Source of the DNA: a virus
Length of the DNA: 64,000 nucleotides
Direction: 5' to 3' (one strand)
IMG/VR virus record: IMGVR_UViG_3300031949_000014
This document shows, piece after piece, positions 965 through 63,788 of the stretch. The translations under genes were made by a program, and so were the position numbers. Each line of letters opens with the position of its first letter. The first letter of the stretch is position 1. Under the pieces are notes generated by a model. That model saw only the letters and a program-made list of their open reading frames with translations. It was not told the origin of the DNA and made no database searches.

Positions 965-3055
965 GTGCCCGCGCCCGCTGCCGCTGTTGAGACCCGCGAA
1001 GCTGTCCTGAAGAGGATCAAATGGGAGCGCCCCGGCAACGCGTGGAAGCTCCTGCAGATGACCAATGGCCAGACCTGGAAGGGCGCCGTCGGTGACGTCC
1101 TGCCGGGTGCATTCTTGAAGGCCGAGGGCGTCGAGGTCACGGACAACTTCGGCCTCGCGTTCGAGGTCAAGACGCTCCTCAGCTCGGTCTTGAAGGGCGC
1201 CGCCGGCGTCGAGGCCTGGATGACGTACCGCATGCCAGAGATCGGCGCTGTTCGTGCCCGCGCCCTGGTCGAGCGTTTCGGCGAGGACCTCGGGGCCACC
1301 ATCTTGAACACGCCTGCGGCGTTGGCGACCGTGCCAGGCATCACGATGGAGCGCGCGACCGCCATCCAGACGGCCTACCTCGGCTACCAGGATGAGCTCG
1401 CTTGGGTGCCGAAGCTCGTCAACAACGGCCTGCAGATGGCCCACGCCCTTGCCACTTTCAAGGCCCACGGCGTCGGCCTCGAGCAGGTCTTGGACACGGA
1501 CCCGTACGTGTTGGTGGACGTCGAGGGGCTCAGTTTCGAGGTCGTGGACGCCCTGGCGCGCCGTCTGGGCATGTCCGAGAAGGACCCCCGCCGCATGCGC
1601 GCCTGGGTGCGCAACATGCTCGAAGAGGACCTCGACGAAGGCCACTGCAACCGGCCGCTGGTCGAGGTCATCGTCGCCATCGCTAAGTGGGGTTTCCCCG
1701 CCCGCGAGGTCATCGACTTGCTGAAGCCCTCGAAGCACCTCTGGATCGAGGAGAAGACCATCTCTCTCGCGCGCATCGCCTACGCCGAGCGCCGGGTCGC
1801 CGCGGGGGTCCGAGGGCTGGTTGAGCAGGGACAGCGCGAGCTGGGCGAGGTCGAGTTGCCCGAGAGCCTCGACGCGTCGCAGAAGGCCGCCGCGCTCGCT
1901 CTCCTGGTCGAGCCCATCGTCGTCATGACCGGCGGGCCGGGCGTGGGCAAGACGCATACGCTCAAGAGCGCCCTGGACGTCATCGAATCCCGCGGCGAGC
2001 GCCCGGTCCTCGCGGCGTTCACCGGCAAGGCCGCCAAGCGCATGTCGGAGGTCACGGGGCGCCCGGCGAGCACGATTCACAAGCTCATCGGTTGGACGCC
2101 GACGGGTTGGAAGTGCGGTCCGGGCGAGCCTATTGCTGCGGACGTCATCGTCATCGACGAGGCCTCGATGGTCGACGTCGAACTCGCCGCGGCGCTCCTC
2201 GACGCCATCGGCGAGGGCACCAGGCTCATTTTGGTGGGCGACGTCGACCAAATACCTCCCGTTGGTCCGGGGCAGCCCTTGGTCGACATCATTCGTTCTG
2301 CGAAGGTTCCGGTGCATACGCTCACGAAGACGCACCGACAGTCGGCGAAAAGTTGGGTCATCGACAACGCTCGACGCATCATCAACGGGGAGGTGCCGAA
2401 CCTCGAGAGCGACGGCAGCTTCGATTTCATGGCGTGCACGGATTCGGACATGATTGTGGCTGTCGTCGTCGCGATGCAGAAGAAGTTCCCGAACGTGCAG
2501 GTCTTGACGCCGGAGCACAAGAAGGGCGCCGGCACCGTTCGCCTAAACAACGAGATTCAGGCTGCCGTCAACCCGCGCTCGAAAGAACAGTGGGCCTCGT
2601 TCATCGAGTCCAACGGCTGCAGGATTTTCGCCGGCGACCGCGTCATCTACACCAGGAACCAGCTCGGCTTGGTCAACGGCGACCTCGGTCTCGTCGAGGA
2701 CGTCGAAGTCATCGGCAACAGGAAGGTCGTCACCGTCCGCTTTGTTGGCGTCGAGAATCCAGATCCTGAGAGCATCGACGGCCTCTTCAAGCTGCAGGAC
2801 GGCAACGTGCGGCCGCTGCAGCTCGCGTACGCGCTGACCGTGCACAAGTTCCAGGGGTCGGAGCACCCCGAGGTCGTGGTCGTCGCCGACGAGGCCCACT
2901 GGAGCTTCCGCCGGCAGCTTCTCTACACCGCGGTCACGCGCACGTCCGACAAGCTCGGCATCGTCGGCTCGCGCGAGGCCGTTGCGCGCGCGGTTGCGAA
3001 GCCCAGGGACACGAATCGCAGGACGAGGTTGGTGGAGAGGATTGGTGGAGCGTGA
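965..3055 (+). CDS. recD2: RecD2-like SF1B helicase
   Basis: HhH (TVPGITMERATAI), Walker A GGPGVGKT, Walker B VIDEASM, LVGDVDQIPPVG, LTKTHRQ, AYALTVHKFQGSE, LLYTAVTR. Confidence 0.93.
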   Translation: MPAPAAAVETREAVLKRIKWERPGNAWKLLQMTNGQTWKGAVGDVLPGAFLKAEGVEVTDNFGLAFEVKTLLSSVLKGAAGVEAWMTYRMPEIGAVRARALVERFGEDLGATILNTPAALATVPGITMERATAIQTAYLGYQDELAWVPKLVNNGLQMAHALATFKAHGVGLEQVLDTDPYVLVDVEGLSFEVVDALARRLGMSEKDPRRMRAWVRNMLEEDLDEGHCNRPLVEVIVAIAKWGFPAREVIDLLKPSKHLWIEEKTISLARIAYAERRVAAGVRGLVEQGQRELGEVELPESLDASQKAAALALLVEPIVVMTGGPGVGKTHTLKSALDVIESRGERPVLAAFTGKAAKRMSEVTGRPASTIHKLIGWTPTGWKCGPGEPIAADVIVIDEASMVDVELAAALLDAIGEGTRLILVGDVDQIPPVGPGQPLVDIIRSAKVPVHTLTKTHRQSAKSWVIDNARRIINGEVPNLESDGSFDFMACTDSDMIVAVVVAMQKKFPNVQVLTPEHKKGAGTVRLNNEIQAAVNPRSKEQWASFIESNGCRIFAGDRVIYTRNQLGLVNGDLGLVEDVEVIGNRKVVTVRFVGVENPDPESIDGLFKLQDGNVRPLQLAYALTVHKFQGSEHPEVVVVADEAHWSFRRQLLYTAVTRTSDKLGIVGSREAVARAVAKPRDTNRRTRLVERIGGA

Positions 3056-3267
3056 AGTATTTTGTTCGCGTACTTGGGTTAATGTACTGCGGTATCGCGC
3101 TCGGCTATTACATGCAGGGTGGGGTCTGGGGAATTTGGCTCGCCATCGCCAACTTGCACTTGTTCATCGGGGAGCTGGCTTCTAGGTTGGATGAACTCGA
3201 GAAGAAGCGCGAACGAGGCGTCGTTCGAAATGACTTGGGGACTCAGGGAGGGGCTTGGTTGTCGTGA
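3052..3267 (+). CDS. Small membrane protein
   Basis: GTGA overlap with the helicase stop; two hydrophobic segments. Confidence 0.6.
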   Translation: MKYFVRVLGLMYCGIALGYYMQGGVWGIWLAIANLHLFIGELASRLDELEKKRERGVVRNDLGTQGGAWLS

Positions 3268-3980
3268 AACCCATCTACTCCACCATCGACCCCGTGTTCT
3301 CTCTCCCGCGGCGCGTGTCGCTCGCGGACAAGCCCGCGACAGCGAGGTTGAAGTTGAGCGAGGTGCAGCCTGCCGCGAAGGTTTCTCCCATCGTCGCAGT
3401 GATTGCCAATGTCAAAGCGTCGCGCGAGGGCGTCGCATGCCTGTGCGGCGGCGATGCGTGGGTCGCCCCCTCCAACAAGGCCGCGTACACGTGCGCGGTG
3501 TGCGCGCGGATGATCAGCTATGCCGACATGTGCCAAAGGAAGGCCGCGCTCGTTTCATCTGTGCGGTGGCCGCCGACCGCGACTGGCATCGTGGAGAGCT
3601 TGCCGCCGGAAGAGCGCTGGCGCGGAGATGTGCTCTGGCTCGGCAGGTACGACCTCGCGCCGAATGAATACGGCGCGTTGCGTTTTACGCCGCACGGGGG
3701 CTTCTTGCCGAAACGCTTCCGCATCACCGCGAGCGGGCCCGGTGTTCGGGTGCAGGTAGCGATTCAAGATCGCTTTCAGTACCGGCCAGCGAACAACTAC
3801 TTCATCGCCGGGCCGGAGGGCGGTGTTCCTCAAGACCTCTTTGCGGAAGACGCCGTGAACGACGATTTAGATCCCATCCAGCGCCAGGCCAAGGTGGAGG
3901 TGTTCACGTACAACTCGTCGCACGAGCGCAGGATCGGCTATGTCTGGTTCGAGGGTGAGAAGATCAGGGAAGTATGGTGA
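3264..3980 (+). CDS. Hypothetical protein, Zn-ribbon (CLC...CAVC) plus beta-sandwich C-terminal domain
   Basis: GTGA overlap; Cys pairs; beta-rich tail GVPQDLFAEDAVN...VEVFTYN...VWFEG. Confidence 0.7.
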   Translation: MKPIYSTIDPVFSLPRRVSLADKPATARLKLSEVQPAAKVSPIVAVIANVKASREGVACLCGGDAWVAPSNKAAYTCAVCARMISYADMCQRKAALVSSVRWPPTATGIVESLPPEERWRGDVLWLGRYDLAPNEYGALRFTPHGGFLPKRFRITASGPGVRVQVAIQDRFQYRPANNYFIAGPEGGVPQDLFAEDAVNDDLDPIQRQAKVEVFTYNSSHERRIGYVWFEGEKIREVW

Positions 3981-37909: not shown

Positions 37910-40510
37910 TCAGCGGCGAACACTGGATCGTCCCTTCGCCTTGAACTTCGGGGACACGCGCGACGTCCGCGCGGTCGACGTCGGGGGTTTGCTCTTCGAG
38001 AACGCAAGCGCGAGGCCGCCGGCGGCGGCGAGGCCCAGGAAGATCGCTCCAGCACCCATGCCGCCCTCTTCGGTGGCAGGGGGCGCGGGAGGAACGTCTG
38101 GCGGAGGAGCAACCGGACCATCGACCGGTGGCGCATCAGGAGGCGGCTGGTACGGAGGCGGCGCAATCGGAGGCGGAACGTCCGGCGGAAGCGGCTGGTA
38201 CGGAGGCGGCGCAATCGGAGGTGGTGGTTGCGGTTGCTCACCGCCTCCGTTGATCGGGGGCTTCTGGTCGAACAAGCCGAACTTCTGAGCTTGTTCAAAC
38301 TCTTGAGGATCGAGCTGCTCGCCCGCGGAGATCTTCCCCTGCAAGCACCCGCGCAAGTCGCCTCCTCGAGAGAAGCAGCTTCCACCGATTGGCGGATTCC
38401 CTCCGTACTGCTTCTCCAGCCAGATCTGCTCACCCTTCGCGACGACTTTACCTTGCGCCGCTGGCAACAAAATCGTCCGCGCATCCGACGACAAGAGGCG
38501 AGGCAACGCGCGCACGGTGATCTCGCGAAGCGTCGGAGTCATCTGAAACAGATCGAAGTAGGCCGCCTGCGTCGCATCGTCCCACGTGCCGCTCGCCACG
38601 ACCTTCGGGTACTTGTTCGTCACCATCAACGTGTGCTGCAGCGCGAGTACCGGTGTCGGCACAGTAGAGAGCTTGACGACAGCGTTGACCTCCGCATCTC
38701 CGGTCGGCTTCGACGGCTTCTTCGGCTCGACGATGCCGCCCGCTGCGGCCTTCAATGCCTCGTACGTGGCGGGGTTCACCGCCATCGTCACACCGTCGAC
38801 GCGCGAGACCCCCTGGTCGAGCTTGCGCCTGCGCGCTTGATCTTCCCACGCGCGCTTGGTGTCCGGACCCCACTTGCCGTCCGAGATCTTCCCTTTGGAA
38901 CCGAGCTTTCGAACGATGCCCTGACCCTCGGTCACCGAAATGTTGATGCTCCCAGCCGGCGTCGGCACAGGCTTCTTTCTGTCGTCCGGCACCGGTGCAC
39001 GCGCTGCCTCGTCCTTCAACCGAGCGTACGCGTCGGCATCCACGGCCATCGTCTTGCCGTCGATGCGCACGGCGTTCTGCGCGAGGCCGCGAGCCTTCGA
39101 TGCGCGCTGCCACGCGCCCTGCGTGTTCGCGCCGAACAGACCGTCGACGACCAGCGGTTTGCCGTTGTTCCCTGGAACACCGAGGGCCTTCAAGATGGTC
39201 TGAGCCTCGAAGACCGCGACTGGAACACCCGCGACAGTTGGCGGGAGCTTCTTCGGTTGGTCTGGCACCGGCGGCTTGTCTGCCTCGGTCTTCAAGCGGG
39301 CGAGCGTGTCGGCCGACACGGCCATCGTCTTGCCGTCGATGCGCGAGACACCGGAATTCAAACCGCGCTGCTTGGCTGCGGTCTCCCACGCAAACTGCGT
39401 GTTCTGACCGAAGAGCCCGTCGGTCTTCAGCGTCTTTTTGTCCTTCCCCTTCACCCCGAGTTTCACCAAGAGGATCTGAGCCTCGAATACAGAAGTCGCC
39501 ACAGCTCCAGCCGGCAAGCCTTTCGGCGCAGGCTTCGGTCCCTCAGGTGTCGTAGGCTTCTCGGGCGTGGGCGGCGCGGCCTTGGCGCCGTCGGCTTGGA
39601 TCTTGTCGTACGTCGCCTGACTCACTCGCGCGGTGCGCCCATCCACGCGCTCGAACGTCTGCGGCAGCCCACGGAGCTTCGCGGAGAACGCCCATGCAGT
39701 CTTGGTCTGCGGACCGTAGAGGCCGTCCTTCGTCAACTTCTTCGACGTCCAGCCCACGCCGTACAAGAGCTCTTGCAGCTCGAGCACCGGGCGTTCGACG
39801 GTGCCCGCGCGCGGCGCGGTCGCGGTCTCCTTCGGGATGCTCGGAGCCAGAGCCTTTGGTTGAGGCGTGCTCTTCGCGACGGCCTCGAGCGCGGCCAACG
39901 TCTGTTGGTTCACCGTGGCGGTCTTGCCGTCGACGCGCTCGAAGAGAGGCGAGAGGCCGCGCTTGGTGGCGGATTGAATCCAAGCTCCGCGCGTCGCAGG
40001 ACCGAACTTGCTGTCGGGGTTCACCTGCTTGGTCGTCCAGCCGAGGCGGTTCAAGAGGCGCTGCAGGTCGAGCACGGGGCGACGGACGGTGCCTGGAGCA
40101 CTGGGGGTGCCGGAAGGAAGCGCTGTAGGCGTTGACGTCGGCGATGCGGCCGACCACGCCGGGACCTGGTCGGTGTACGCCGGGCGCAAGTTCTGCACCG
40201 TGACCGGATGCACCCACGCCGTCTGCGGCCCTGCGCGGTCGAACGCCGGGTTCAGACCCTTCGAGATTGCCAGCTTCTGCCACGCCGCGCGCGTGTTCGG
40301 GCCGTAGAGTCCGGCACCGCCCGCGGTCAACAGAGTGCCGCTCGGGCTCTTCGTCACGCCGTTGGCTTCGAGAAGTTGCTGCGCCTCAAGCACGCTGAGC
40401 TGCGTGAGTCCCGACGACGCGGGCACGACGGTCGCCGAGAGCGCGTCGCCCGCGGAGAACTCGTCGAGGTAGCTCGACAGTCCCTGTAGGTCGTCGTAGC
40501 CGCGCATCAC
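37910..40510 (-). CDS. Seven-repeat peptidoglycan-binding-like protein with Pro-rich stalk and C-terminal TM
   Basis: Repeats such as VLELQELL...DGLYGPQTKTAW...FERVDGRTARV. Confidence 0.8.
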   Translation of the reverse strand: MMRGYDDLQGLSSYLDEFSAGDALSATVVPASSGLTQLSVLEAQQLLEANGVTKSPSGTLLTAGGAGLYGPNTRAAWQKLAISKGLNPAFDRAGPQTAWVHPVTVQNLRPAYTDQVPAWSAASPTSTPTALPSGTPSAPGTVRRPVLDLQRLLNRLGWTTKQVNPDSKFGPATRGAWIQSATKRGLSPLFERVDGKTATVNQQTLAALEAVAKSTPQPKALAPSIPKETATAPRAGTVERPVLELQELLYGVGWTSKKLTKDGLYGPQTKTAWAFSAKLRGLPQTFERVDGRTARVSQATYDKIQADGAKAAPPTPEKPTTPEGPKPAPKGLPAGAVATSVFEAQILLVKLGVKGKDKKTLKTDGLFGQNTQFAWETAAKQRGLNSGVSRIDGKTMAVSADTLARLKTEADKPPVPDQPKKLPPTVAGVPVAVFEAQTILKALGVPGNNGKPLVVDGLFGANTQGAWQRASKARGLAQNAVRIDGKTMAVDADAYARLKDEAARAPVPDDRKKPVPTPAGSINISVTEGQGIVRKLGSKGKISDGKWGPDTKRAWEDQARRRKLDQGVSRVDGVTMAVNPATYEALKAAAGGIVEPKKPSKPTGDAEVNAVVKLSTVPTPVLALQHTLMVTNKYPKVVASGTWDDATQAAYFDLFQMTPTLREITVRALPRLLSSDARTILLPAAQGKVVAKGEQIWLEKQYGGNPPIGGSCFSRGGDLRGCLQGKISAGEQLDPQEFEQAQKFGLFDQKPPINGGGEQPQPPPPIAPPPYQPLPPDVPPPIAPPPYQPPPDAPPVDGPVAPPPDVPPAPPATEEGGMGAGAIFLGLAAAGGLALAFSKSKPPTSTARTSRVSPKFKAKGRSSVRR

Positions 40511-42036: not shown

Positions 42037-42702
42037 CTACTTCGAGACAGCCGCGCGGACGAGGCCGTGCAAGAAGTTCGTCGCGATGACGGGCTGCTCG
42101 ATGTCGGGGTTCGCGTAGGTGAGACCCACCGAAGCCAGTTGCGTCACGAGCCACTGACGCGCGTCGTAGGTGATGGTCCCGTCCAGTTCGTGGTTCTGGT
42201 TCAGGAGCTGCTTCTTCACCAAGCGAGCGGCCGAGGCCGTCGCCGGCACGCCGACGGAGATGATGCCCGAGTCCACTTCGGTCGACTGACCGTAGAGGCC
42301 ATAGCCCGAAGGGAACTTCACGATCGGACCTTCGTCCTGCAAAATTCCGTTGATGGCGAGACGGTAGAAACCGTTCTCGACGATCTTCTTGACGTCGCGC
42401 GGCACGGTCACCACGTCGCCGGTGGCGAGGCGGAAGTACAGGCCGATGCGATCGAGCACCATCGACTCGCCCGCGGACAGCTTGCGGGGGGTCTTGATGT
42501 TCGTGTCGACGTTGCGCTTGCCCTGCACGTCGTTGAAGAAAGTGAACTCGGTGCCCGCCGTGATTACTCCCGGCAAGACCACGATCGAGTCGTACTTGTC
42601 CGACTCGCGGAAGTCGCGGATGTTGACGATCTCACCGCTCTGGTCGTTCCGGTAGAGACCGGGCTGACCTTCGATCGGCTGCAAAACGGGCACCTGATTC
42701 AT
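42037..42702 (-). CDS. Putative major capsid protein (single jelly-roll)
   Basis: YDS...FTFF...GK..DTN...LSAGESMVLDRIG pattern; strong RBS, double stop, downstream hairpin. Confidence 0.55.
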   Translation of the reverse strand: MNQVPVLQPIEGQPGLYRNDQSGEIVNIRDFRESDKYDSIVVLPGVITAGTEFTFFNDVQGKRNVDTNIKTPRKLSAGESMVLDRIGLYFRLATGDVVTVPRDVKKIVENGFYRLAINGILQDEGPIVKFPSGYGLYGQSTEVDSGIISVGVPATASAARLVKKQLLNQNHELDGTITYDARQWLVTQLASVGLTYANPDIEQPVIATNFLHGLVRAAVSK

Positions 42703-42808
42703 CGGGCTTTCTCCTCTGTACCTATTCCCCTCTTTCGGAGGGTGAATGGCTTTGGTTGCGTGTCTTCAGTCAGAAATCGTTGTCTCTCAAACCTCAGACG
42801 TTCTTCTC

Positions 42809-43393
42809 TCAGGCCATCCAGGGGCCGTAGCCCCCGAGCGTCTCTTGCTGCGTCACGACGCCGCCGAAGCCCATCAAGGCCTCGGGCGTCACGGTCGGGT
42901 CAGCGAACTGTCCGCGCGCGAACGCGCCGGGTGAGCCCTGCACGTTCACCGCTTCGAGGGCCGAGAGCGCGCCGCCGTTGTACGCGCCCAAGAGCGCGAG
43001 GTCACCGGCCGACAGCTCGGACGAGTCCGGCATCTGGCCGAGCGGGTTGCCGCCACCGAGCAGATTCGCATCGACGTAGGAGTCGATGAGCTGCGCGAGG
43101 GCGAGACCGCCGACGCCGCCGATGACGGCGATCGCCGCATCGCGGTTGTAGTCCCACAACATGCGAGCCGCGAGGCCCGCTCCGACCAGCGCGAGGCCCG
43201 CGCGCAAGCGGTGCTGGTTCGGCTCCGACCACGTCGAAGGAGTCGGCAGCTTCGGCATCGCCCAAGCGGCCAACAGAATCGCGCCGGCGCCTGCGCCCGC
43301 GGCGATCACTTGCTCCTGCAACATCGCAGGAGTCATGAACGCGCCCATGTCGTCGTAGAGGCCCATGCCCATGTCGTCGTAGTCGCGAAGCAT
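42809..43393 (-). CDS. Multi-TM membrane protein upstream of the putative MCP
   Basis: GGAGG RBS; three hydrophobic helices. Confidence 0.7.
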   Translation of the reverse strand: MLRDYDDMGMGLYDDMGAFMTPAMLQEQVIAAGAGAGAILLAAWAMPKLPTPSTWSEPNQHRLRAGLALVGAGLAARMLWDYNRDAAIAVIGGVGGLALAQLIDSYVDANLLGGGNPLGQMPDSSELSAGDLALLGAYNGGALSALEAVNVQGSPGAFARGQFADPTVTPEALMGFGGVVTQQETLGGYGPWMA

Positions 43394-43466
43394 CGTGATC
43401 CTCCGTGGAGTGTTGCGAACCGTGAGTCGAGTTGAAGATACGTCGAAGCGTTCTTCGATGTCAACC

Positions 43467-45149
43467 TCAAGTCGGAAAGATTCGCGACGCGTCGACCATC
43501 GCCTTCGGAGCTTCCCAACCCACAGGCATGTTGACGGAAGCGTCGAACGAAATCCACTTCTTCGGATTCCTACGCGGGTGACCGACCTGCGCGTAGATGT
43601 GATTCCACTCCGGCGAACCCTTCGTCCTGATGACCTTGAACCGACAAGGTAAACCCAGAGTCGCGGCCGAAGCGCAGGTCAAAACAGAGTAATCATCGCA
43701 GTTGTGAACGATGACATCTTGCTCGGGCAAGTAGAACCTGTGGCTGTCGGTTTCGATGTCGTACACAGGCACGTAGTCGCCCTCGGAAATGCTGCGCACC
43801 TTAGCCCACGGACGAGAGAAATTATCCACCCGAACCGTGACCCGATAGATCGGGTTGAGCCCAAACCCACCGTGCTCAGTCACACGCTTTATGGACGTAC
43901 TTCTGCCGCAGATGCGTTGGAGGATCCTGTACTGGACCGCGAGCAACTTCGACGTCGTAGAGAACACGAAATTCTTACCGCTGGTCGAAAACCCACCGTC
44001 CGCGCTCAAGCCTTCGAGCAGCTTCTCCGCGGTCTGTTTTGACCATCGCGTGTGAGGTAACTGCTTGTGGACAGCCGTGGTGCCGCAACCGGAGAAGAGC
44101 TTTGCTACCGCACCTGGGCCCGCGTCTCCATCTGACAAGTAGATCTCGCGCTCGTGCTCCCGCACAGTGAACCCGAGACTCTTGGCGTGCTTTGCCGCCT
44201 TCTCGCGGATGCCTTTGCCGTTGCATACCCCCGCGATTCCGACGCACGCGAGCGCACCATCCACACGAAACCGACGACGACTTCCCTCGGCCAAATAGGC
44301 CCCTAGAAGAAAAGCCTCGTCGTCGGACAGCTCTTGTGTGTCGGAGAAAGCTGTCTCGCGAGGCTGCAACAAATCGTTGCCCGGCCGCACAGCACTGGCC
44401 AGCACCTCTTCAACCTGTGCGAACCCTCCTGCCCTCCCACTCTGTTGAGGAACGCGGAATAGCTTGTGGCCTTCAGTGCAACGCAACACCGAGCCGTTGT
44501 TCAGTTCCAAATCCAGAGTTGACTGGATTCCCTTGTCCCACCAGTTCGTGACCTTCGCCCAACCTGTGCCGTCGAAGATGACCTCGCCGACCTTGATGTC
44601 TTCGATGGCGACCAAGAGGCCGTCCGCGCGCAAGAGCTGCGTTCCCTCCGGCAAGCAATCCCCAGTGCGCAGCTTCAACGTGTGCCTGGGCGCCTGGTAG
44701 GAATCGATGCCGGCGATGTCGGACGTGTACCGGACGTTCCCGCGGATGGCTTGGAAGAGGGCTTTGATCTCGGCGAGGTTGTCCTTCTCCGGGACACACC
44801 AGTTGGAGCCGCATTTCTTGTTCACCGCGCGGCGCGCGAACTCGTAGACGACGGGGTCTCGCTTGCCTTGCTCGACGAGCTTGCGGAGGTACTCGATGCG
44901 CTCGTCCAAGTTCTTGATCTGGTGGGTCTTCAGCCGAATGTCCCCTGACGGCGTCTTCGCGTGTTGCCCTTCGAAACCTCTGACGTAAGTGCTGGACGAA
45001 GACCGCGCCGAACCTCGTCCCGAAGTACGGCTAGCACGTTGACTCCGTGTCGTGTTTGACGGGGAGCTTAGGTGCCGGGCCCCGACGGAAAGCTGCCGGA
45101 GGCCGAGCACCACGGACGCCAAACCCAGCACGACGTTACCGAGCGCCAC
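43467..45149 (-). CDS. Transglutaminase-like Cys protease interrupted by an intein
   Basis: Spliced RTGD-CDDY; NHIY; FDAS; N-terminal hydrophobic anchor. Confidence 0.85.
   Translation of the reverse strand: MALGNVVLGLASVVLGLRQLSVGARHLSSPSNTTRSQRASRTSGRGSARSSSSTYVRGFEGQHAKTPSGDIRLKTHQIKNLDERIEYLRKLVEQGKRDPVVYEFARRAVNKKCGSNWCVPEKDNLAEIKALFQAIRGNVRYTSDIAGIDSYQAPRHTLKLRTGDCLPEGTQLLRADGLLVAIEDIKVGEVIFDGTGWAKVTNWWDKGIQSTLDLELNNGSVLRCTEGHKLFRVPQQSGRAGGFAQVEEVLASAVRPGNDLLQPRETAFSDTQELSDDEAFLLGAYLAEGSRRRFRVDGALACVGIAGVCNGKGIREKAAKHAKSLGFTVREHEREIYLSDGDAGPGAVAKLFSGCGTTAVHKQLPHTRWSKQTAEKLLEGLSADGGFSTSGKNFVFSTTSKLLAVQYRILQRICGRSTSIKRVTEHGGFGLNPIYRVTVRVDNFSRPWAKVRSISEGDYVPVYDIETDSHRFYLPEQDVIVHNCDDYSVLTCASAATLGLPCRFKVIRTKGSPEWNHIYAQVGHPRRNPKKWISFDASVNMPVGWEAPKAMVDASRIFPT
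43701..44657 (-). mobile_element. 319-aa intein with LAGLIDADG homing endonuclease
   Basis: C1-LPEGTQL, CTEGHKLF (block B), LLGAYLAEGS, LLEGLSADGG, VYDIET, VIVHN then C+1. Confidence 0.93.
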
Positions 45150-45176
45150 GCTTTTCTAGTACCGGAAACGGTCGCA

Positions 45177-47318
45177 CTACGCAACGGTGCCGTCATCCGC
45201 GCCTTCCGCGTCGGACGCGGGCGGAGAGATCTCGTTCTCGTCTTCGGGTGTCTCTTGTTCTTCGGCATCCGCTCGCGCCTCGGCGAGCTGTTGCACGTGC
45301 GTGACGAGCTCTTCGAAGTGCGCGTCGACTGCGGCAAACGCCCGTTCCGCGACTTCGTTCTGCAAGAGGTTGCTCTTCACGAGACCGCCGACGAGCTGAC
45401 GCACGTAGCGCAGAGCCACTTCCTTGTTGCCTGTGCTGATCGCGTCGAGCGTCGTGTTCCCGACGCCGCTCCACGGCTCGTAGATGCTCGACAGGTAGAG
45501 CAAGAACTCAACCGTCGCCTCGACAAGCGCGCCGTCGTCTTGCGCGATGATGAAGCCGTTGATGTGCTCGACGATGTTTGGTGGAAGGCCCGGCGTCGCG
45601 GGCGGCTGCATCTTCGCAGCGGCCTCTGGTGTTGCCGTCGCGGGCGGAGGCGTGACGACGGCTGTCGGCGCGGCTGCAACGGTCGCAGGCGGTGTGCCAG
45701 CGGTGAGCCCGAGGCGTGCTTCTTCCTCGGCGAGCTTTCGCTCTTCGATGGCGAGCCTGCGACGCGCAACGTCTGCTGCTCGTGCCTGCACGTCAGCCGG
45801 AATCTGTTGGGGTTGTTGCTGTTGCGGCTGAGGTTGTGACTGCACAACCTTCGCCGTCGCCGTTTGTCCCGACTTCGCGCGGATGAGCCCGGCGACCGAA
45901 CCGACGAGCTCGCGGTTCGAGAGGGCGCCGCCCAAGATGTCGCCCCACATGCTGCCAGCAGAAGGCTCGGTCTGCTGTCGCATCGTGGAGACCGCCTGCA
46001 TGATGCCGGTGAAGTTGTCCATCGACTTCTTGAAATCGTCGGTGCCTTTTTCCCCGCGGAGCTGGTTCACCAGGCCGATGATGTCGGCGGTGGACATGCG
46101 GTCTCGGTTCATCTGCTCGAGCAGAATCGGCGTGAGATTGTCGGCGGGCTTCAAGGCCACGAGCACGGCTGCGATGCCTTGGAGCTGGGCCATCGGGTCC
46201 GGCGGCGTGACCATCGGCGGCATTGGAGCGCTCGAACCTTTGTCGTCGAGCAACTTCGCGAGCAACGTCATCATGACGGGGTCGGCTTCCTTGCGTCCAA
46301 GGATCGACATGAGTTGCATCATGCGTTCTTCGGACTTCTGCTGCTGCTGGGTCATCACCTGCAGCATCGTGGCGGTCTGCTGTCCCATCGCCTGGACCAT
46401 CGCGACGACGGTGTCGCCTTTGCCGGAGCCACCGGAGAGCTTCTCGCTGAAGTCGTGAATCTTGGTGAGCTGCTCGATCGGGTCCGTCGGGTCGTTCTTC
46501 TTCTCCATAATTTCGCGCAGCTCTCGGTCGCGGCGTTGGCCGTCGCGTTCGATCTGCCGCATGAGTAAGTCCCCGAGGCCGCCTTCGCCGCGGCCCCCAC
46601 CGCCGCTATGTCCTCCGTCGGTCGGTTCCACGGTGCCCAGAATGCGGACGACGCCTGCATCCAGACGCTTGCCGTCGGAAGTGATGCCGAAGATTTGATA
46701 GTCCCCCGCCCCGTACTGTGGCTTGGCGTAGCGGTTGAGGAACGAGGCCATGCCCTGCGACTGCGCGAGGTCAGCGGCGTTGTAGTCGCCGACGTAGCCG
46801 AGCTGGCCATTGTCGGAGCGCTTCCAGACTTCGAAGTGCTCGGCGCCGGGGATCTTGTTCCCAAGAATCGTCCCGAGCTTCTTCAACGCCTGTGTCGTGG
46901 CCGGGCGTAGCTCTCGAAGCTCCGGCACTTGCGGAAGCTCTTCTTCCTCCGACGCAGCTACCGCTGCTTTCTGTCCGCGCGGCTTGCGTGTTCTCGGTTG
47001 CGTCTGTGGCGGCGTTGCGGGTCGCGCGAGAGGCGAGGGCGCGGCTGGCGCGGGCGTTTCGTCCGAGAGATCTTCCGACGGCGCTTCTTCGCCCGTCGAC
47101 GACGGCTGCTCGTCTTCACCTTCACCTCGGACCTCCTCTTCGTCAGACGGATCTTCCGCCGGCGCCTCTTCGACCACTGCCGCACGAGCGACACGACGCG
47201 CGCTCCCGCGCTCTTCGAGCTCGCTGAGGTCGAGATTCGGCGGCGCGGCGGGCGCCTTCTTCGTGCGCGTGCGGGTGCGAGGGGCCTCGGTCGTCACGGT
47301 GTCGGCTTCAAGCGTCAT
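45177..47318 (-). CDS. Large low-complexity hypothetical protein (713 aa)
   Basis: AGGAG RBS inside the recombinase 3' end; acidic/Pro-rich N-terminus and Gln/Met-rich middle. Confidence 0.75.
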   Translation of the reverse strand: MTLEADTVTTEAPRTRTRTKKAPAAPPNLDLSELEERGSARRVARAAVVEEAPAEDPSDEEEVRGEGEDEQPSSTGEEAPSEDLSDETPAPAAPSPLARPATPPQTQPRTRKPRGQKAAVAASEEEELPQVPELRELRPATTQALKKLGTILGNKIPGAEHFEVWKRSDNGQLGYVGDYNAADLAQSQGMASFLNRYAKPQYGAGDYQIFGITSDGKRLDAGVVRILGTVEPTDGGHSGGGGRGEGGLGDLLMRQIERDGQRRDRELREIMEKKNDPTDPIEQLTKIHDFSEKLSGGSGKGDTVVAMVQAMGQQTATMLQVMTQQQQKSEERMMQLMSILGRKEADPVMMTLLAKLLDDKGSSAPMPPMVTPPDPMAQLQGIAAVLVALKPADNLTPILLEQMNRDRMSTADIIGLVNQLRGEKGTDDFKKSMDNFTGIMQAVSTMRQQTEPSAGSMWGDILGGALSNRELVGSVAGLIRAKSGQTATAKVVQSQPQPQQQQPQQIPADVQARAADVARRRLAIEERKLAEEEARLGLTAGTPPATVAAAPTAVVTPPPATATPEAAAKMQPPATPGLPPNIVEHINGFIIAQDDGALVEATVEFLLYLSSIYEPWSGVGNTTLDAISTGNKEVALRYVRQLVGGLVKSNLLQNEVAERAFAAVDAHFEELVTHVQQLAEARADAEEQETPEDENEISPPASDAEGADDGTVA

Positions 47319-48189
47319 CGGTCTCTCCTTGGGCTCTGCCCACTGCGGCAACGATTTCGTCTTCACCGATTGCCAGGTAGTGCCGCATCAGCGTGCTGAC
47401 GTCGGCGTGCCCGGCGAGCTTGGCGAGGACGATCGGGTCCACGCCCTTCTTGTAGAGGTTAGTGAGGTAAGTCCGCCTGAACGTGTGCGGAGTGAACTCC
47501 TGCCCATCGTCGCGCAGGCTCGAGACAGCAACGCGCAGCGTGTGCCCCGCTATGTGGCCCTTTTGGCGCCCAGGGAAGAGCCAGCGCTTGTCTGGGAGCT
47601 TCTTTCGCCAGCCGAGGTACTCGTGCAAGACTTCGATGCCCTCGAGCAGGGGGACCACGCGCTGGTGCCCGCCTTTACCTTCGACCTTCAGGCAGTACAC
47701 CTCGCGCCGTCCGTCTTTGAACTTCACCGGCACGCGCTTGAGACAGTGGTACGAGAGCGTCACGACCTCGCCGGAGCGCAGGCCCGTGTACGGCAAGAGC
47801 ATCGCCGCGGTGCGCGTTGGCTCGCCGAGGCGGTCTTCCGCGGCCTCCAGATACGCCTCGAGGTCCTCGTCGCTCAAGACCTCGCGCACGCGGCGCACGA
47901 CGCGCAGCTTCTCCGGCGCGTGTAGCTCCGGCACGTCGATGCCCTGGAGCTTGAGCCAGCGCACGTAGCGCCGCACGCCCGCGACTTTCACATTCACGGT
48001 CGAGGGCGAGCATCCGTCGGCCAGGAGCATCGAGCAGTAGTCCGACAGCACGTTGGGCGAGACCTTCGTGATGTCGCGCACGTCGGTCTCTTCGAGCCAG
48101 CGATAGAAGCGCCCTACCGCGTAGTAATACTGGTACGCGGTCTCCTCGCGACGCACGGACTTCATGTGCTCTAGAAACTTCGTGCTCAT
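47308..48189 (-). CDS. Tyrosine recombinase/integrase (XerC/D-like)
   Basis: YTGLRSGEV, KGKGGHQR, TPHTFRRT, LAGHADVSTLMRHY. Confidence 0.92.
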   Translation of the reverse strand: MSTKFLEHMKSVRREETAYQYYYAVGRFYRWLEETDVRDITKVSPNVLSDYCSMLLADGCSPSTVNVKVAGVRRYVRWLKLQGIDVPELHAPEKLRVVRRVREVLSDEDLEAYLEAAEDRLGEPTRTAAMLLPYTGLRSGEVVTLSYHCLKRVPVKFKDGRREVYCLKVEGKGGHQRVVPLLEGIEVLHEYLGWRKKLPDKRWLFPGRQKGHIAGHTLRVAVSSLRDDGQEFTPHTFRRTYLTNLYKKGVDPIVLAKLAGHADVSTLMRHYLAIGEDEIVAAVGRAQGETDDA

Positions 48190-48643
48190 TACTGCCGAAG
48201 TTGCACTCGTCGTTACGCTCTGCACGAAGAGGACTTTTGCCGAAAAAAACGCAGATGTCGATCTCGGAAGTTACGTTGTACTTACGTCTTAGGTTCACGC
48301 TCGGTTTCTCAACGTACTGGTTCTTCTGCGGACGTTGAGCGGCGAAAGTACGGACAGAAGTGCAACGGCGACGGCGAAAACGGACCGGCGTTGACGTTCT
48401 CGCGCGTTCGTGTTATCGCGATAGCGCTACGCGCACGACGCGGTTCACTGCACCGCAAGTGGTGGCAATGCGCGCCACGGTGCCGCCGACGGTGACGACG
48501 AAGCGCGCGCCGGGCTCGCGCGGAAGTGTTGGTGGTGTTCAGTGACGGTGCGCGCCGTCGTTTTCGCGCCGCGACTCTTGAAGGATCGCGCAGGTAAGCG
48601 TAGGGTTTGACTCAGCGACGCCCACCGTCGCGGAAGAGGCGAG

Positions 48644-62041: not shown

Positions 62042-62973
62042 TACAACTTCACGCGAGCCGAGACTGGAGCGTCTTCTGGGCCGCGCCAGTACGGCTCGAC
62101 GTGCACGAGCTTCCGCAGCTCGCGGCCTTTGCCGTGCGCCTGCATCTTCCAGTGTCCGCGGACCAAGGTCTGCACCTTCGGGTGACGACCGCCGTGCTCG
62201 ACGTAGGCACGGACGGCGTCGCGGACGTCGACCTGGACGGCGCGGCGGAGTTCGAAGCGATCGTAGGACGGTAAGGCCGTCCTCTTGCCGTCGACGTTCT
62301 TGAAGCCACCGCCAGAGGAGCCTTGGCTGGAGTCGGCAAGGGTGCGGGGGTCCGAGAGTTCGAGGCAGACGCCGGCGAGGAGGTTGAGAATGAGGTGCAC
62401 TGTCCGCAGTCGCTGTCCGTCCACCACCGGCGCCCATTCTCCGGGTGGAAGTGTTCGTTCAAGCAGAACTCGAGACTCCTCCGACGGGGGTTCATGGTGA
62501 TACAACCCGCTGAAATTCGCGCTTTGATTCCAAAGGTTGAGTTCGTTGCGCTCCGACGCCACCCATAAATGTAGAGCGTCCAAATACTGCATCATACCTA
62601 TCAGAGTGACAGGGTACTCCCCTGACTCAATTGGACTTTCCACGCTCAACAATCCTGTCGGAATTCGGATCATGAAAGCCGGCCACGGCAGCACAACGAG
62701 CGTGTCTAACGCATCAACACTCAAGCCTGTCGCCATAAGAGACGCGGCAAGTCGTTGTCCAACATCCACAGTGGGAAAACCGCAAGCCCCCCACTTCCCA
62801 GCCAGACCTCGCCCTTTGGTTTTAACAACAGAGAACACTTCTTGTTCCGGAAGCCCATGCTCCAACAGAAACAAACCGGACTCTTTTAAAGCAAGACGAT
62901 CGTCCGCGAGCCAAGCTTGACTGGCAACGAGCATGTCCAAACCCAGCACACGCATTTTGTCGAAAACACCCAC
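62041..62973 (-). CDS. Hypothetical protein, lower GC (start uncertain)
   Basis: Long ORF between the two repeats; C-terminal VRGHWK motif. Confidence 0.65.
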   Translation of the reverse strand: MGVFDKMRVLGLDMLVASQAWLADDRLALKESGLFLLEHGLPEQEVFSVVKTKGRGLAGKWGACGFPTVDVGQRLAASLMATGLSVDALDTLVVLPWPAFMIRIPTGLLSVESPIESGEYPVTLIGMMQYLDALHLWVASERNELNLWNQSANFSGLYHHEPPSEESRVLLERTLPPGEWAPVVDGQRLRTVHLILNLLAGVCLELSDPRTLADSSQGSSGGGFKNVDGKRTALPSYDRFELRRAVQVDVRDAVRAYVEHGGRHPKVQTLVRGHWKMQAHGKGRELRKLVHVEPYWRGPEDAPVSARVKL

Positions 62974-63001
62974 GCTCGCTCCCTTACAGACTCTGACTCT
63001 A

Positions 63002-63019
63002 AGATGCGCAAGTGCATTC
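63002..63019. repeat. 18-bp direct repeat, copy 2
   Basis: AGATGCGCAAGTGCATTC. Confidence 0.85.
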
Positions 63020-63067
63020 ATCCCACGTTCGTCTGTCAGACTTCGCGTTCTGCCGCGTCTAACGGGC

Positions 63068-63505
63068 ATGCTCAACATCAACCGTCTCTCTCACCTCGAC
63101 CACGCCCTCACGCTCGGACACGTCCGATTCATCCTCGAGAGCTTCGGCGACCGCTCGGATTTCTTCACCGCGACCGTAGACCTGCCGCCCGAACTCGCGG
63201 ACCTGCCGTGCGGCCTGCATGGGCCGTCCACCGGGCAGCCCGACGTCGGCGACGACGAGGTCCAGATGGTCGTCAGGCCCGGCCGCAGCTACCCGTCCAG
63301 GGTGCTGCTCAACCCCAAGGTGGGGGCGCTGCCCAGCCGGCTCCTGACCGTCATCGCCGGACCACACGGCGACCTACCATGCCTCCTGTACACCGCGCAT
63401 GGCGGGCCGCTGGCGCCACGGGAGCCTGGAGACCCGTCGCTGTCCGAGACCGAGCGGGAGGCCTCGGTTGCGTTCTGGAAGGTGCATGCGCTGGCGCAGA
63501 CGTGA
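63068..63505 (+). CDS. Conserved phage hypothetical protein
   Basis: TVIAGP...LYTAHGGPLAPREPGDP...FW..HAL. Confidence 0.7.
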   Translation: MLNINRLSHLDHALTLGHVRFILESFGDRSDFFTATVDLPPELADLPCGLHGPSTGQPDVGDDEVQMVVRPGRSYPSRVLLNPKVGALPSRLLTVIAGPHGDLPCLLYTAHGGPLAPREPGDPSLSETEREASVAFWKVHALAQT

Positions 63506-63788
63506 CTTTTTTCCCGCTACCTCGCGTTTTCCACCCAGCCAGGGTTTGATGGTCTCAAACACTTTTTACGTTTTCGTGAATAAAAACATAAAGTTAAGTT
63601 CTCGGGGCTCTCAGGGACACTCTCCAATTTATTACTTAAGAGAGAGTAGGTTTTTTCAATCCTACCTTGTCTTAAGGGTGTAATGTGGTACCAAACAAGA
63701 AAGCGAAAAAAACCGGAAGCATGTATTCGTAATTGTTTATGAAAGGGATGAAAATTTGGGTGCTCGTGTAAGTGCCCTGGAGGATCGC

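Follow-up and report, generated by a model that had tools for sequence, protein, structure and literature searches.

The locus described here raises the question of why a viral gene is interrupted by an intein directly before the codon for its predicted catalytic cysteine, and whether such an insertion controls the enzyme or parasitizes its gene. The gene lies at positions 43467-45149 of a 64,000-nucleotide stretch of DNA from IMG/VR virus record IMGVR_UViG_3300031949_000014, referred to below as the window. The original prediction, made from the letters of the window, placed a 319-residue intein exactly before the catalytic Cys of a putative maturation protease and proposed that its splicing times virion maturation. 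We conclude that the insertion is very likely a canonical class-1 selfish mobile intein, located between Asp164 and the catalytic Cys of a membrane-anchored, virion-type transglutaminase-like enzyme, and not a required regulator of that enzyme.

The precursor gene encodes 560 residues, and the same gene was also called on an ENA soil-metagenome contig (ERZ27256953 k141_3507869, 68,966 bp) and on one Logan contig. Pfam detected Transglut_core (PF01841) in two separated stretches of the precursor (33 bits, cutoff 23), the second of which covers residues 483-537 and model positions 53-108, and placed Intein_splicing, LAGLIDADG_3, Hint and Hom_end_hint between them. The junctions read ...LRTGD/CLPEG...VIVHN/CDDYSV (slashes mark the splice junctions), with VIVHN/C at residues 479-484. 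Aligned with intein-free homologs, the precursor has one clean insertion of 319 residues, flanked by the invariant residues D164 and C484; the homologs run through this point as an ungapped D-CDD. At the DNA level, comparison with an intein-free locus (L006) showed an indel of exactly 957 bp between GAT and TGC; loci L004, L005 and L008 supplied further sequences of the empty site. The 560-residue open reading frame (ORF) and the intein limits given in the original prediction (43701-44657, residues 165-483) were exact by both the homolog alignment and the indel. Intein-free alleles of 241 residues were up to 84% identical to the window exteins and kept all invariant residues. The precursor and the intein are built as follows:

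43467-45149, minus strand: whole precursor gene, transglutaminase-like protein plus intein; 560 residues, GTG start, stop at 43467-43469.
44658-45149, minus strand: N-extein, residues 1-164; hydrophobic helix, disordered basic/Ser-rich linker and first half of the core, ending at invariant D164 in the homolog alignments.
43701-44657, minus strand: intein, residues 165-483 (319 residues, 957 bp); of class 1, with Cys1, TEGH as block B, a His-Asn C terminus and, nested within it, a LAGLIDADG homing endonuclease with two motifs.
44655-44657, minus strand: Cys1 codon of the intein (block A, CLPEGT); aligns with residue 1 of solved Prp8 inteins.
44466-44477, minus strand: block B TEGH (TxxH), residues 225-228; His in 137/137 and Thr/Ser in 137/137 related inteins.
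44280-44309, minus strand: LAGLIDADG motif 1, LLGAYLAEGS, residues 281-290, with predicted catalytic acidic residue E288; Asp/Glu in 136/137 related inteins, with a sub-cutoff LAGLIDADG_3 match nearby.
43992-44021, minus strand: LAGLIDADG motif 2, LLEGLSADGG, residues 377-386, with predicted catalytic acidic residue D384; Asp in 136/137 related inteins, LAGLIDADG_3 spanning residues 382-443.
43701-43766, minus strand: intein blocks F and G (VYDIETDSHRFYLPEQDVIVHN), residues 462-483, ending in His482-Asn483; block F Asp in 137/137 related inteins, terminal Asn in 122 and Gln in 15.
43470-43700, minus strand: C-extein, residues 484-560, second half of the core, from the Transglut_core stretch and the homolog alignment.
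43698-43700, minus strand: codon TGC of C484, the +1 nucleophile and predicted catalytic Cys (GD-C-DD); invariant in homologs and aligned with the Cys of GVCRDF in PDB 3isr.

All class-1 splicing elements are present in the window intein, namely Cys1, TxxH, the block F Asp, His-Asn and the +1 Cys, and residues 165-243 matched solved Prp8 inteins from the first residue on (E 9e-5). The LAGLIDADG blocks noted in the original prediction were recovered as two motifs lying ~96 residues apart, each of which retains its acidic residue. A lower GC content of the intein than of its exteins had also been described, and it was considered as a sign of foreign origin. This sign was discarded, since the 58.8% GC of the intein falls between the 62.8% of the N-extein and the 56.7% of the C-extein (60.9% for both exteins together), leaving no meaningful contrast.

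Intein-free alleles, which the original prediction had proposed to look for, were abundant. A search with the N-extein only returned 74 homologs of 169-282 residues, all with Transglut_core, two of which are 241 residues long, the length predicted for the spliced product. A second search limited to long proteins yielded six more intein-bearing alleles, with homologous inteins at the same site. The intein is present in 7 of the 81 family members found, and 74 (~91%) are without it. The seven intein-bearing sequences were scattered across a 69-extein tree, requiring at least six gains or losses, and the nearest relative of every intein-bearing allele was intein-free, except for the P0079/P0080 pair.

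The exteins of one intein-bearing allele (P0078) are 99% identical to an intein-free protein (P0052), and the two proteins differ only by the intein; comparison of their contigs (L007 and L008) shows a precise indel of 933 bp within flanks that are ~90-93% identical. When public contigs were placed on window positions 42800-45800, two sediment metagenomes contained ~90%-identical relatives that skip a net 957 nucleotides (997-40 and 978-21). One sediment run contained both a ~90%-identical intein-free relative (depth ~8) and fragments 100% identical to the window virus (depth ~2.4), including part of the intein, indicating that donor and recipient homing alleles co-occur. This distribution is that of a homing-type, selfish element.

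The intein belongs to a lineage with a narrow choice of target. Searched alone against 1.84 billion representative proteins, it gave 544 matches at E <=1e-3, 88 of them below 1e-30, and 130 representatives with a full intein among the best 150 of the 544 matches were used for a census. In ~120 of these 130, the intein lies between xD and C(D/E)(D/E/G/N) of diverse transglutaminase-like hosts, whose exteins total from ~150 to ~680 residues and which range from close relatives to sequences beyond detection by the family profile. Among 61 more remote hosts, the Cys and His columns were invariant, and 13 were still recognised by Transglut_core despite being split. These sequences suggest that the lineage is specialised on the xD/C(D/E)(D/E) site of transglutaminase-like hosts. 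The original prediction regarded a protease of the structural module as an unusual intein host, which is correct with respect to the literature; in sequence space the host is not unusual, because an intein lineage is specialised on exactly such a site.

Conservation within the lineage extends over both the splicing and the endonuclease parts. Among 137 related inteins, Cys1 was kept in 136, the block B His and the block F Asp in all 137, and each of the two LAGLIDADG acidic residues in 136. The C-terminal end was more variable, with a penultimate His in 69, Ser in 56 and Arg in 10, and a terminal Asn in 122 and Gln in 15; many of these inteins end in Ser-Asn, Arg-Asn, Arg-Gln or Ser-Gln in place of His-Asn. 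Such non-canonical ends may alter splicing rates. In eight representatives, a related intein occupies a second site, W/C...HN/CVP(E/Q)K (W/CVPEKD), which corresponds to the conserved CGxxW-C118-xPEKD motif of the window family, and one protein of 938 residues (P0204) carries inteins at both sites. The second site is empty in the window:

44796-44798, minus strand: codon of C118 (CGxxW/CxPEKD), the second intein site of the family; occupied in 8 representative homologs.

Two remote hosts were found on unannotated virus-like contigs. On one locus (L011, 4669-7785), a 1038-residue gene adjoining the intein-bearing transglutaminase-like gene also contains an intein with a LAGLIDADG domain, and the viral contigs of remote hosts may be rich in inteins.

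The host protein was analyzed through an intein-free allele (P0002), which scored 52.1 bits against Transglut_core (cutoff 23). Its ADCDDFS segment aligned with GVCRDFAH of PDB 3isr, a transglutaminase-like putative cysteine protease, and its WNHIY and FDAS segments aligned with the 3isr His and Asp. In the numbering of the window precursor, these residues form the predicted triad C484-H517-D536, in canonical order with spacings of 33 and 19, and they hardly vary, if at all, within the family. An AF2 model of the same allele, built from a 48-sequence alignment (pLDDT 82.9), showed a helix at residues 7-26, a disordered basic linker at 27-60 and a compact domain from residue 61. Foldseek placed this model in the transglutaminase-like superfamily with a probability of 1.0 (3isr, 3.5e-6; PNGase, 3.6e-5), and other matches included the transglutaminase 4xz7, LapG, TglA, the pseudomurein endoisopeptidases PeiP and PeiW, CPR-C4 and TgpA. 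The alignment and the predicted fold support a transglutaminase-like Cys-His-Asp enzyme in which the +1 Cys is the predicted catalytic Cys, in agreement with the original prediction. The same sequences support the view that splicing would restore GDCDD in a 241-residue product. The remaining features of the host are the following:

45078-45134, minus strand: predicted membrane-anchor helix, residues 6-24; from a hydropathy scan and the AF2 helix of an intein-free homolog, and kept in homologs.
43599-43601, minus strand: codon of H517 (WNHIY), predicted catalytic His; invariant in one family alignment and nearly so in a second, and in register with the His of both 3isr and gp34 of SSIP-1 (Salisaeta icosahedral phage 1).
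43542-43544, minus strand: codon of D536 (FDAS), predicted catalytic Asp; invariant and aligned with the Asp of 3isr and SSIP-1 gp34.

Four further, non-catalytic cysteines are invariant or nearly so in the family, C113 (44811-44813), C118 (44796-44798), C492 (43674-43676) and C502 (43644-43646), and could either bind structural zinc, as PNGase does, or pair as disulfides.

The activity of the host enzyme is not fixed by its fold, since the members of the transglutaminase-like superfamily differ in activity and include proteases, wall-cutting isopeptidases (one from a phage), N-glycanases and cross-linking transglutaminases. The structures that share its fold and Cys-His-Asp arrangement (3isr, LapG 4fgo/4u65, PNGase 2f4m and PeiP/PeiW 8z4f/8jx4) are only 11-20% identical to it, and none of them has an intein. 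No PHROG match was found for the 560-residue protein. Neither Pfam nor PHROG matched the host protein to a maturation-protease family (adenain C5, HK97-type S78/U9/U35, ClpP/S49-type or assemblin), and none of these families was among the 25 leading ones listed for the 74 window ORFs. The label of maturation protease, which names one of several activities of the superfamily, is therefore unsupported. A peptidase or amidase acting on viral or cell-wall peptides is more likely than an enzyme for protein cross-linking.

A link to a known virion came from a tblastn search of the host enzyme against known phages, which matched gp34 of SSIP-1 (E 4e-11, 88% of the core). In a pairwise BLASTP comparison, the two proteins were 27% identical (E 2e-17), with the Cys, His and Asp aligned. 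SSIP-1 gp34 is a 304-residue protein annotated in GenBank as a structural protein and itself contains Transglut_core (29.6 bits); the best match in the viral structure library BFVD, the unnamed I1ZBG7, is likewise of 304 residues (E 9e-12). The two proteins share a homologous transglutaminase-like core, but gp34 carries no intein, is without the long anchor and linker at the N terminus and has an additional ~130 residues at its C terminus. The neighbours of gp34 have no detectable similarity to those of the window gene, and the SSIP-1 genome is 43.8 kb in size, against ~69 kb here. SSIP-1 is tailless, has an internal membrane and is said to encode two types of major capsid protein (PMC6356626). 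Homology to a structural protein makes a virion-associated role of the host enzyme plausible.

The gene also keeps its neighbours. On contigs of distant relatives, 20-108 kb in length, the transglutaminase-like gene lies in a conserved block that runs from an integrase through a ~700-780-residue protein, the transglutaminase-like protein, a ~190-residue protein with hydrophobic segments and proteins of ~220, ~180-208 and ~140-160 residues to a large protein with a peptidoglycan-binding domain. In the window, the 221-residue protein at 42037-42702 (minus strand) had 280 homologs at E <=1e-3, and the 120 listed were all 62-78% identical. Its model resembles a jelly-roll-like sandwich, with weak best matches to the viral capsid proteins of SPV1 (Z 7.1), P23-77 (VP17, Z 5.2) and also satellite panicum mosaic virus; the fold scores are weak (best Foldseek E 1.3e-3; VIA Z <=7.1, within the range common for the tool). 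An Atlas search found only unnamed viral clusters, and tblastn of this protein against known phages gave nothing meaningful. Its predicted fold makes it a candidate for the major capsid protein of a tailless virus. The placement of the intein host in a structural module by the original prediction holds up in that the block lies beside the jelly-roll-like protein and the host is homologous to SSIP-1 gp34; the protease label attached to it does not.

The 866-residue protein at 37910-40510 (minus strand) matched PG_binding_1 and endolysin-like PHROGs. In related contigs, a counterpart of 865-1203 residues is kept downstream of the putative capsid genes. The protein is a candidate virion-associated or lysis enzyme acting on the cell wall. 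The window also encodes a RecD2/Dda-like helicase, tyrosine integrases, methyltransferases, HNH nucleases, an M23 peptidase and a sugar-modification cluster. Two tyrosine integrases were located, one at window 47308-48225 and the other at 2810-3655 of locus L003 on the ENA contig, equivalent to about window 62760-63605. Terminase, portal and HK97 capsid were missing from the 25 top families listed for the 74 ORFs of the window. By Walker A pattern, the RecD2-like helicase (965-3055) is the sole clear P-loop ATPase. SSIP-1 has a structural protein, gp40, with an AAA_25 ATPase domain, of which no counterpart was seen in the window. The window maps onto the 68,966-bp contig in circularly permuted order (position x of the window equals contig position 47416 - x, continuing around the contig end), which suggests a complete circular genome of ~69 kb. 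Taken from an uncultured soil virus, this genome apparently represents a tailless one.

In the mechanism that we propose, one 560-residue chain would be translated and would be inactive because its catalytic core is split by the 319 residues of the intein. Self-excision of the intein would then use Cys165, Asn483 and the +1 Cys484, and ligation of the exteins would give the 241-residue enzyme with GDCDD intact. During co-infection, the homing endonuclease would cut intein-free alleles at the conserved GAT/TGCGATGA, and the intein would be copied into them. By residing in a catalytic codon block that cannot change, the intein would exploit its host gene as a selfish element.

Several observations weigh against this reading. 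The curated profiles all scored below their own cutoffs (Intein_splicing, 30-32 vs 35.8; Hint, 14.4 vs 29.7; LAGLIDADG_3, 18.5-20.4 vs 22.5; TIGR01445, 16.9 vs 24.5). These scores point to a divergent sequence and not to missing motifs, and the motif and indel evidence for an intein stands apart from the profiles. Between alleles, the inteins are 53-83% identical and the exteins 58-77%, suggesting that the element is old in this virus group. Since the two have diverged alike, these comparisons cannot separate a long vertical persistence with repeated precise loss from repeated homing. In the sole clear case of a different pattern, P0077, the intein stands nearer to those of a distant extein clade than the exteins do (68-72% against 58-59%), which hints at transfer of the intein. 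The virus type was assigned from fold matches that are weak (best Z 7.1; Foldseek E ~1e-3) and from missing tailed-phage hallmarks.

The sub-threshold scores of the curated intein models would also fit a degenerate, non-splicing Hint insert in a disabled, pseudogene-like copy of the host gene. We consider this very improbable, because the motifs are intact and the exteins conserved: all class-1 splicing residues are present, the frame is open over 560 codons, the exteins are 84% identical to an intein-free allele with the invariant residues kept, and the gene belongs to the conserved core of the virus group and is found in identical form in two assemblies. A splicing-gated zymogen, in which the intein would serve as a co-opted switch, responsive to redox, metal or assembly, on a virion-anchored protease or transglutaminase and would time virion maturation, is slightly less remote and still quite unlikely. 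With the core split and the catalytic Cys serving as the +1 nucleophile, the precursor would necessarily be inactive, and the two separate intein sites of the family are both at conserved cysteines. Conditional protein splicing is documented for other inteins (PMC6195587, PMC5238726, PMC7360933, PMC5790916), and the penultimate residue, which varies in the relatives, modulates splicing rate in mycobacteriophage inteins (PMC5050341). Retention at two conserved-cysteine sites as a natural zymogen switch, releasing the enzyme at the right stage of morphogenesis or entry, would be a similarly long shot; such a switch might perhaps be helped by the catalytic His/Asp of the extein or triggered by redox or assembly. 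Splicing as a timer is disfavoured because 74 of 81 alleles do without the intein and near-identical genomes, with exteins 99% identical, differ only by it. Presence is scattered, with at least six changes on the tree, both forms occur in one sample, and the endonuclease residues are conserved, as expected of a mobile parasite. The precursor sequence has no CPGC-like redox-trap motif at the N-terminal junction. The proposal that splicing times maturation is thus unsupported and is contradicted by these population data, and no regulatory role of the intein is indicated.

The preferred reading of the insertion as a class-1 selfish mobile intein is unchanged by a further alternative, which concerns only the host. 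According to this alternative, the enzyme is a virion-borne cell-wall peptidase or isopeptidase for entry or exit, or a transglutaminase that cross-links the virion, and not a capsid-maturation protease; we give it slightly below an even chance. The fold neighbours PeiP and PeiW, pseudomurein endoisopeptidases, and the psiM2 phage enzyme in the viral library argue for such a role, as do the matches to the periplasmic enzymes LapG and TgpA and to true transglutaminases (4xz7, 3s3j), the annotation of SSIP-1 gp34 as a virion component and the lack of a match to any of the maturation-protease families listed above. Tailless membrane phages carry virion-associated lytic enzymes, such as P7 and P15 of PRD1, which also counts in its favour. 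On the other side, a strongly basic segment follows the membrane helix, and by the positive-inside rule the catalytic domain would be cytoplasmic and not periplasmic, judging from the sequence. The genome also already has an M23 peptidase and the large PG_binding protein.

We compared the window intein with known systems. With other class-1 LAGLIDADG inteins (PI-SceI in VMA1, RecA/DnaB and fungal Prp8), it shares Cys1, TxxH, the block F Asp, His-Asn, the +1 Cys and two LAGLIDADG motifs, as well as insertion into the host's best-conserved active-site motif, a sporadic distribution and the existence of intein-free alleles. It differs from them in its host, a viral transglutaminase-like enzyme and not an ATPase, polymerase, ribonucleotide reductase or terminase, in a +1 nucleophile that is the predicted catalytic nucleophile of the host, and in a sequence that lies below the Pfam and NCBIfam thresholds. 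Mycobacteriophage inteins (Kelley et al. 2016, PMC5050341) have in common with it viral reservoirs, active-centre insertions, a varying penultimate His and horizontal movement. The hosts named in the text, out of 13 groups in total, are TerL, a RecB/Cas4-like nuclease, a recombination directionality factor (RDF), TOPRIM, a nucleotidyltransferase, ThyX, a helicase and a DNA methyltransferase (DNMT); neither "peptidase" nor "transglutaminase" occurs in that text. The intein surveys consulted describe insertion at catalytic residues as rare and list no peptidase or transglutaminase host, and full-text searches for a naturally occurring intein in a host of the transglutaminase-like or cysteine-protease type brought up papers on bioconjugation and technology and nothing else. 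The intein is of an ordinary kind, and its host class is unreported in the surveyed literature and apparently large.

These results define a new intein host class, viral transglutaminase-like cysteine enzymes that are hit at the predicted catalytic nucleophile, with at least ~120 representative clusters, a second insertion site and an allele with two inteins. They also provide a natural intein-plus/minus population for the study of homing between viral genomes. Because the nucleophile of splicing and that of the enzyme would be the same atom, the system may be of use for studying cross-talk between intein and extein and for engineering splicing-activated proteases or transglutaminases. Finally, the host enzyme provides a sequence link between widespread uncultured soil and sediment viruses and an isolated phage, SSIP-1, which would offer a tractable route to the function of this putative virion enzyme.

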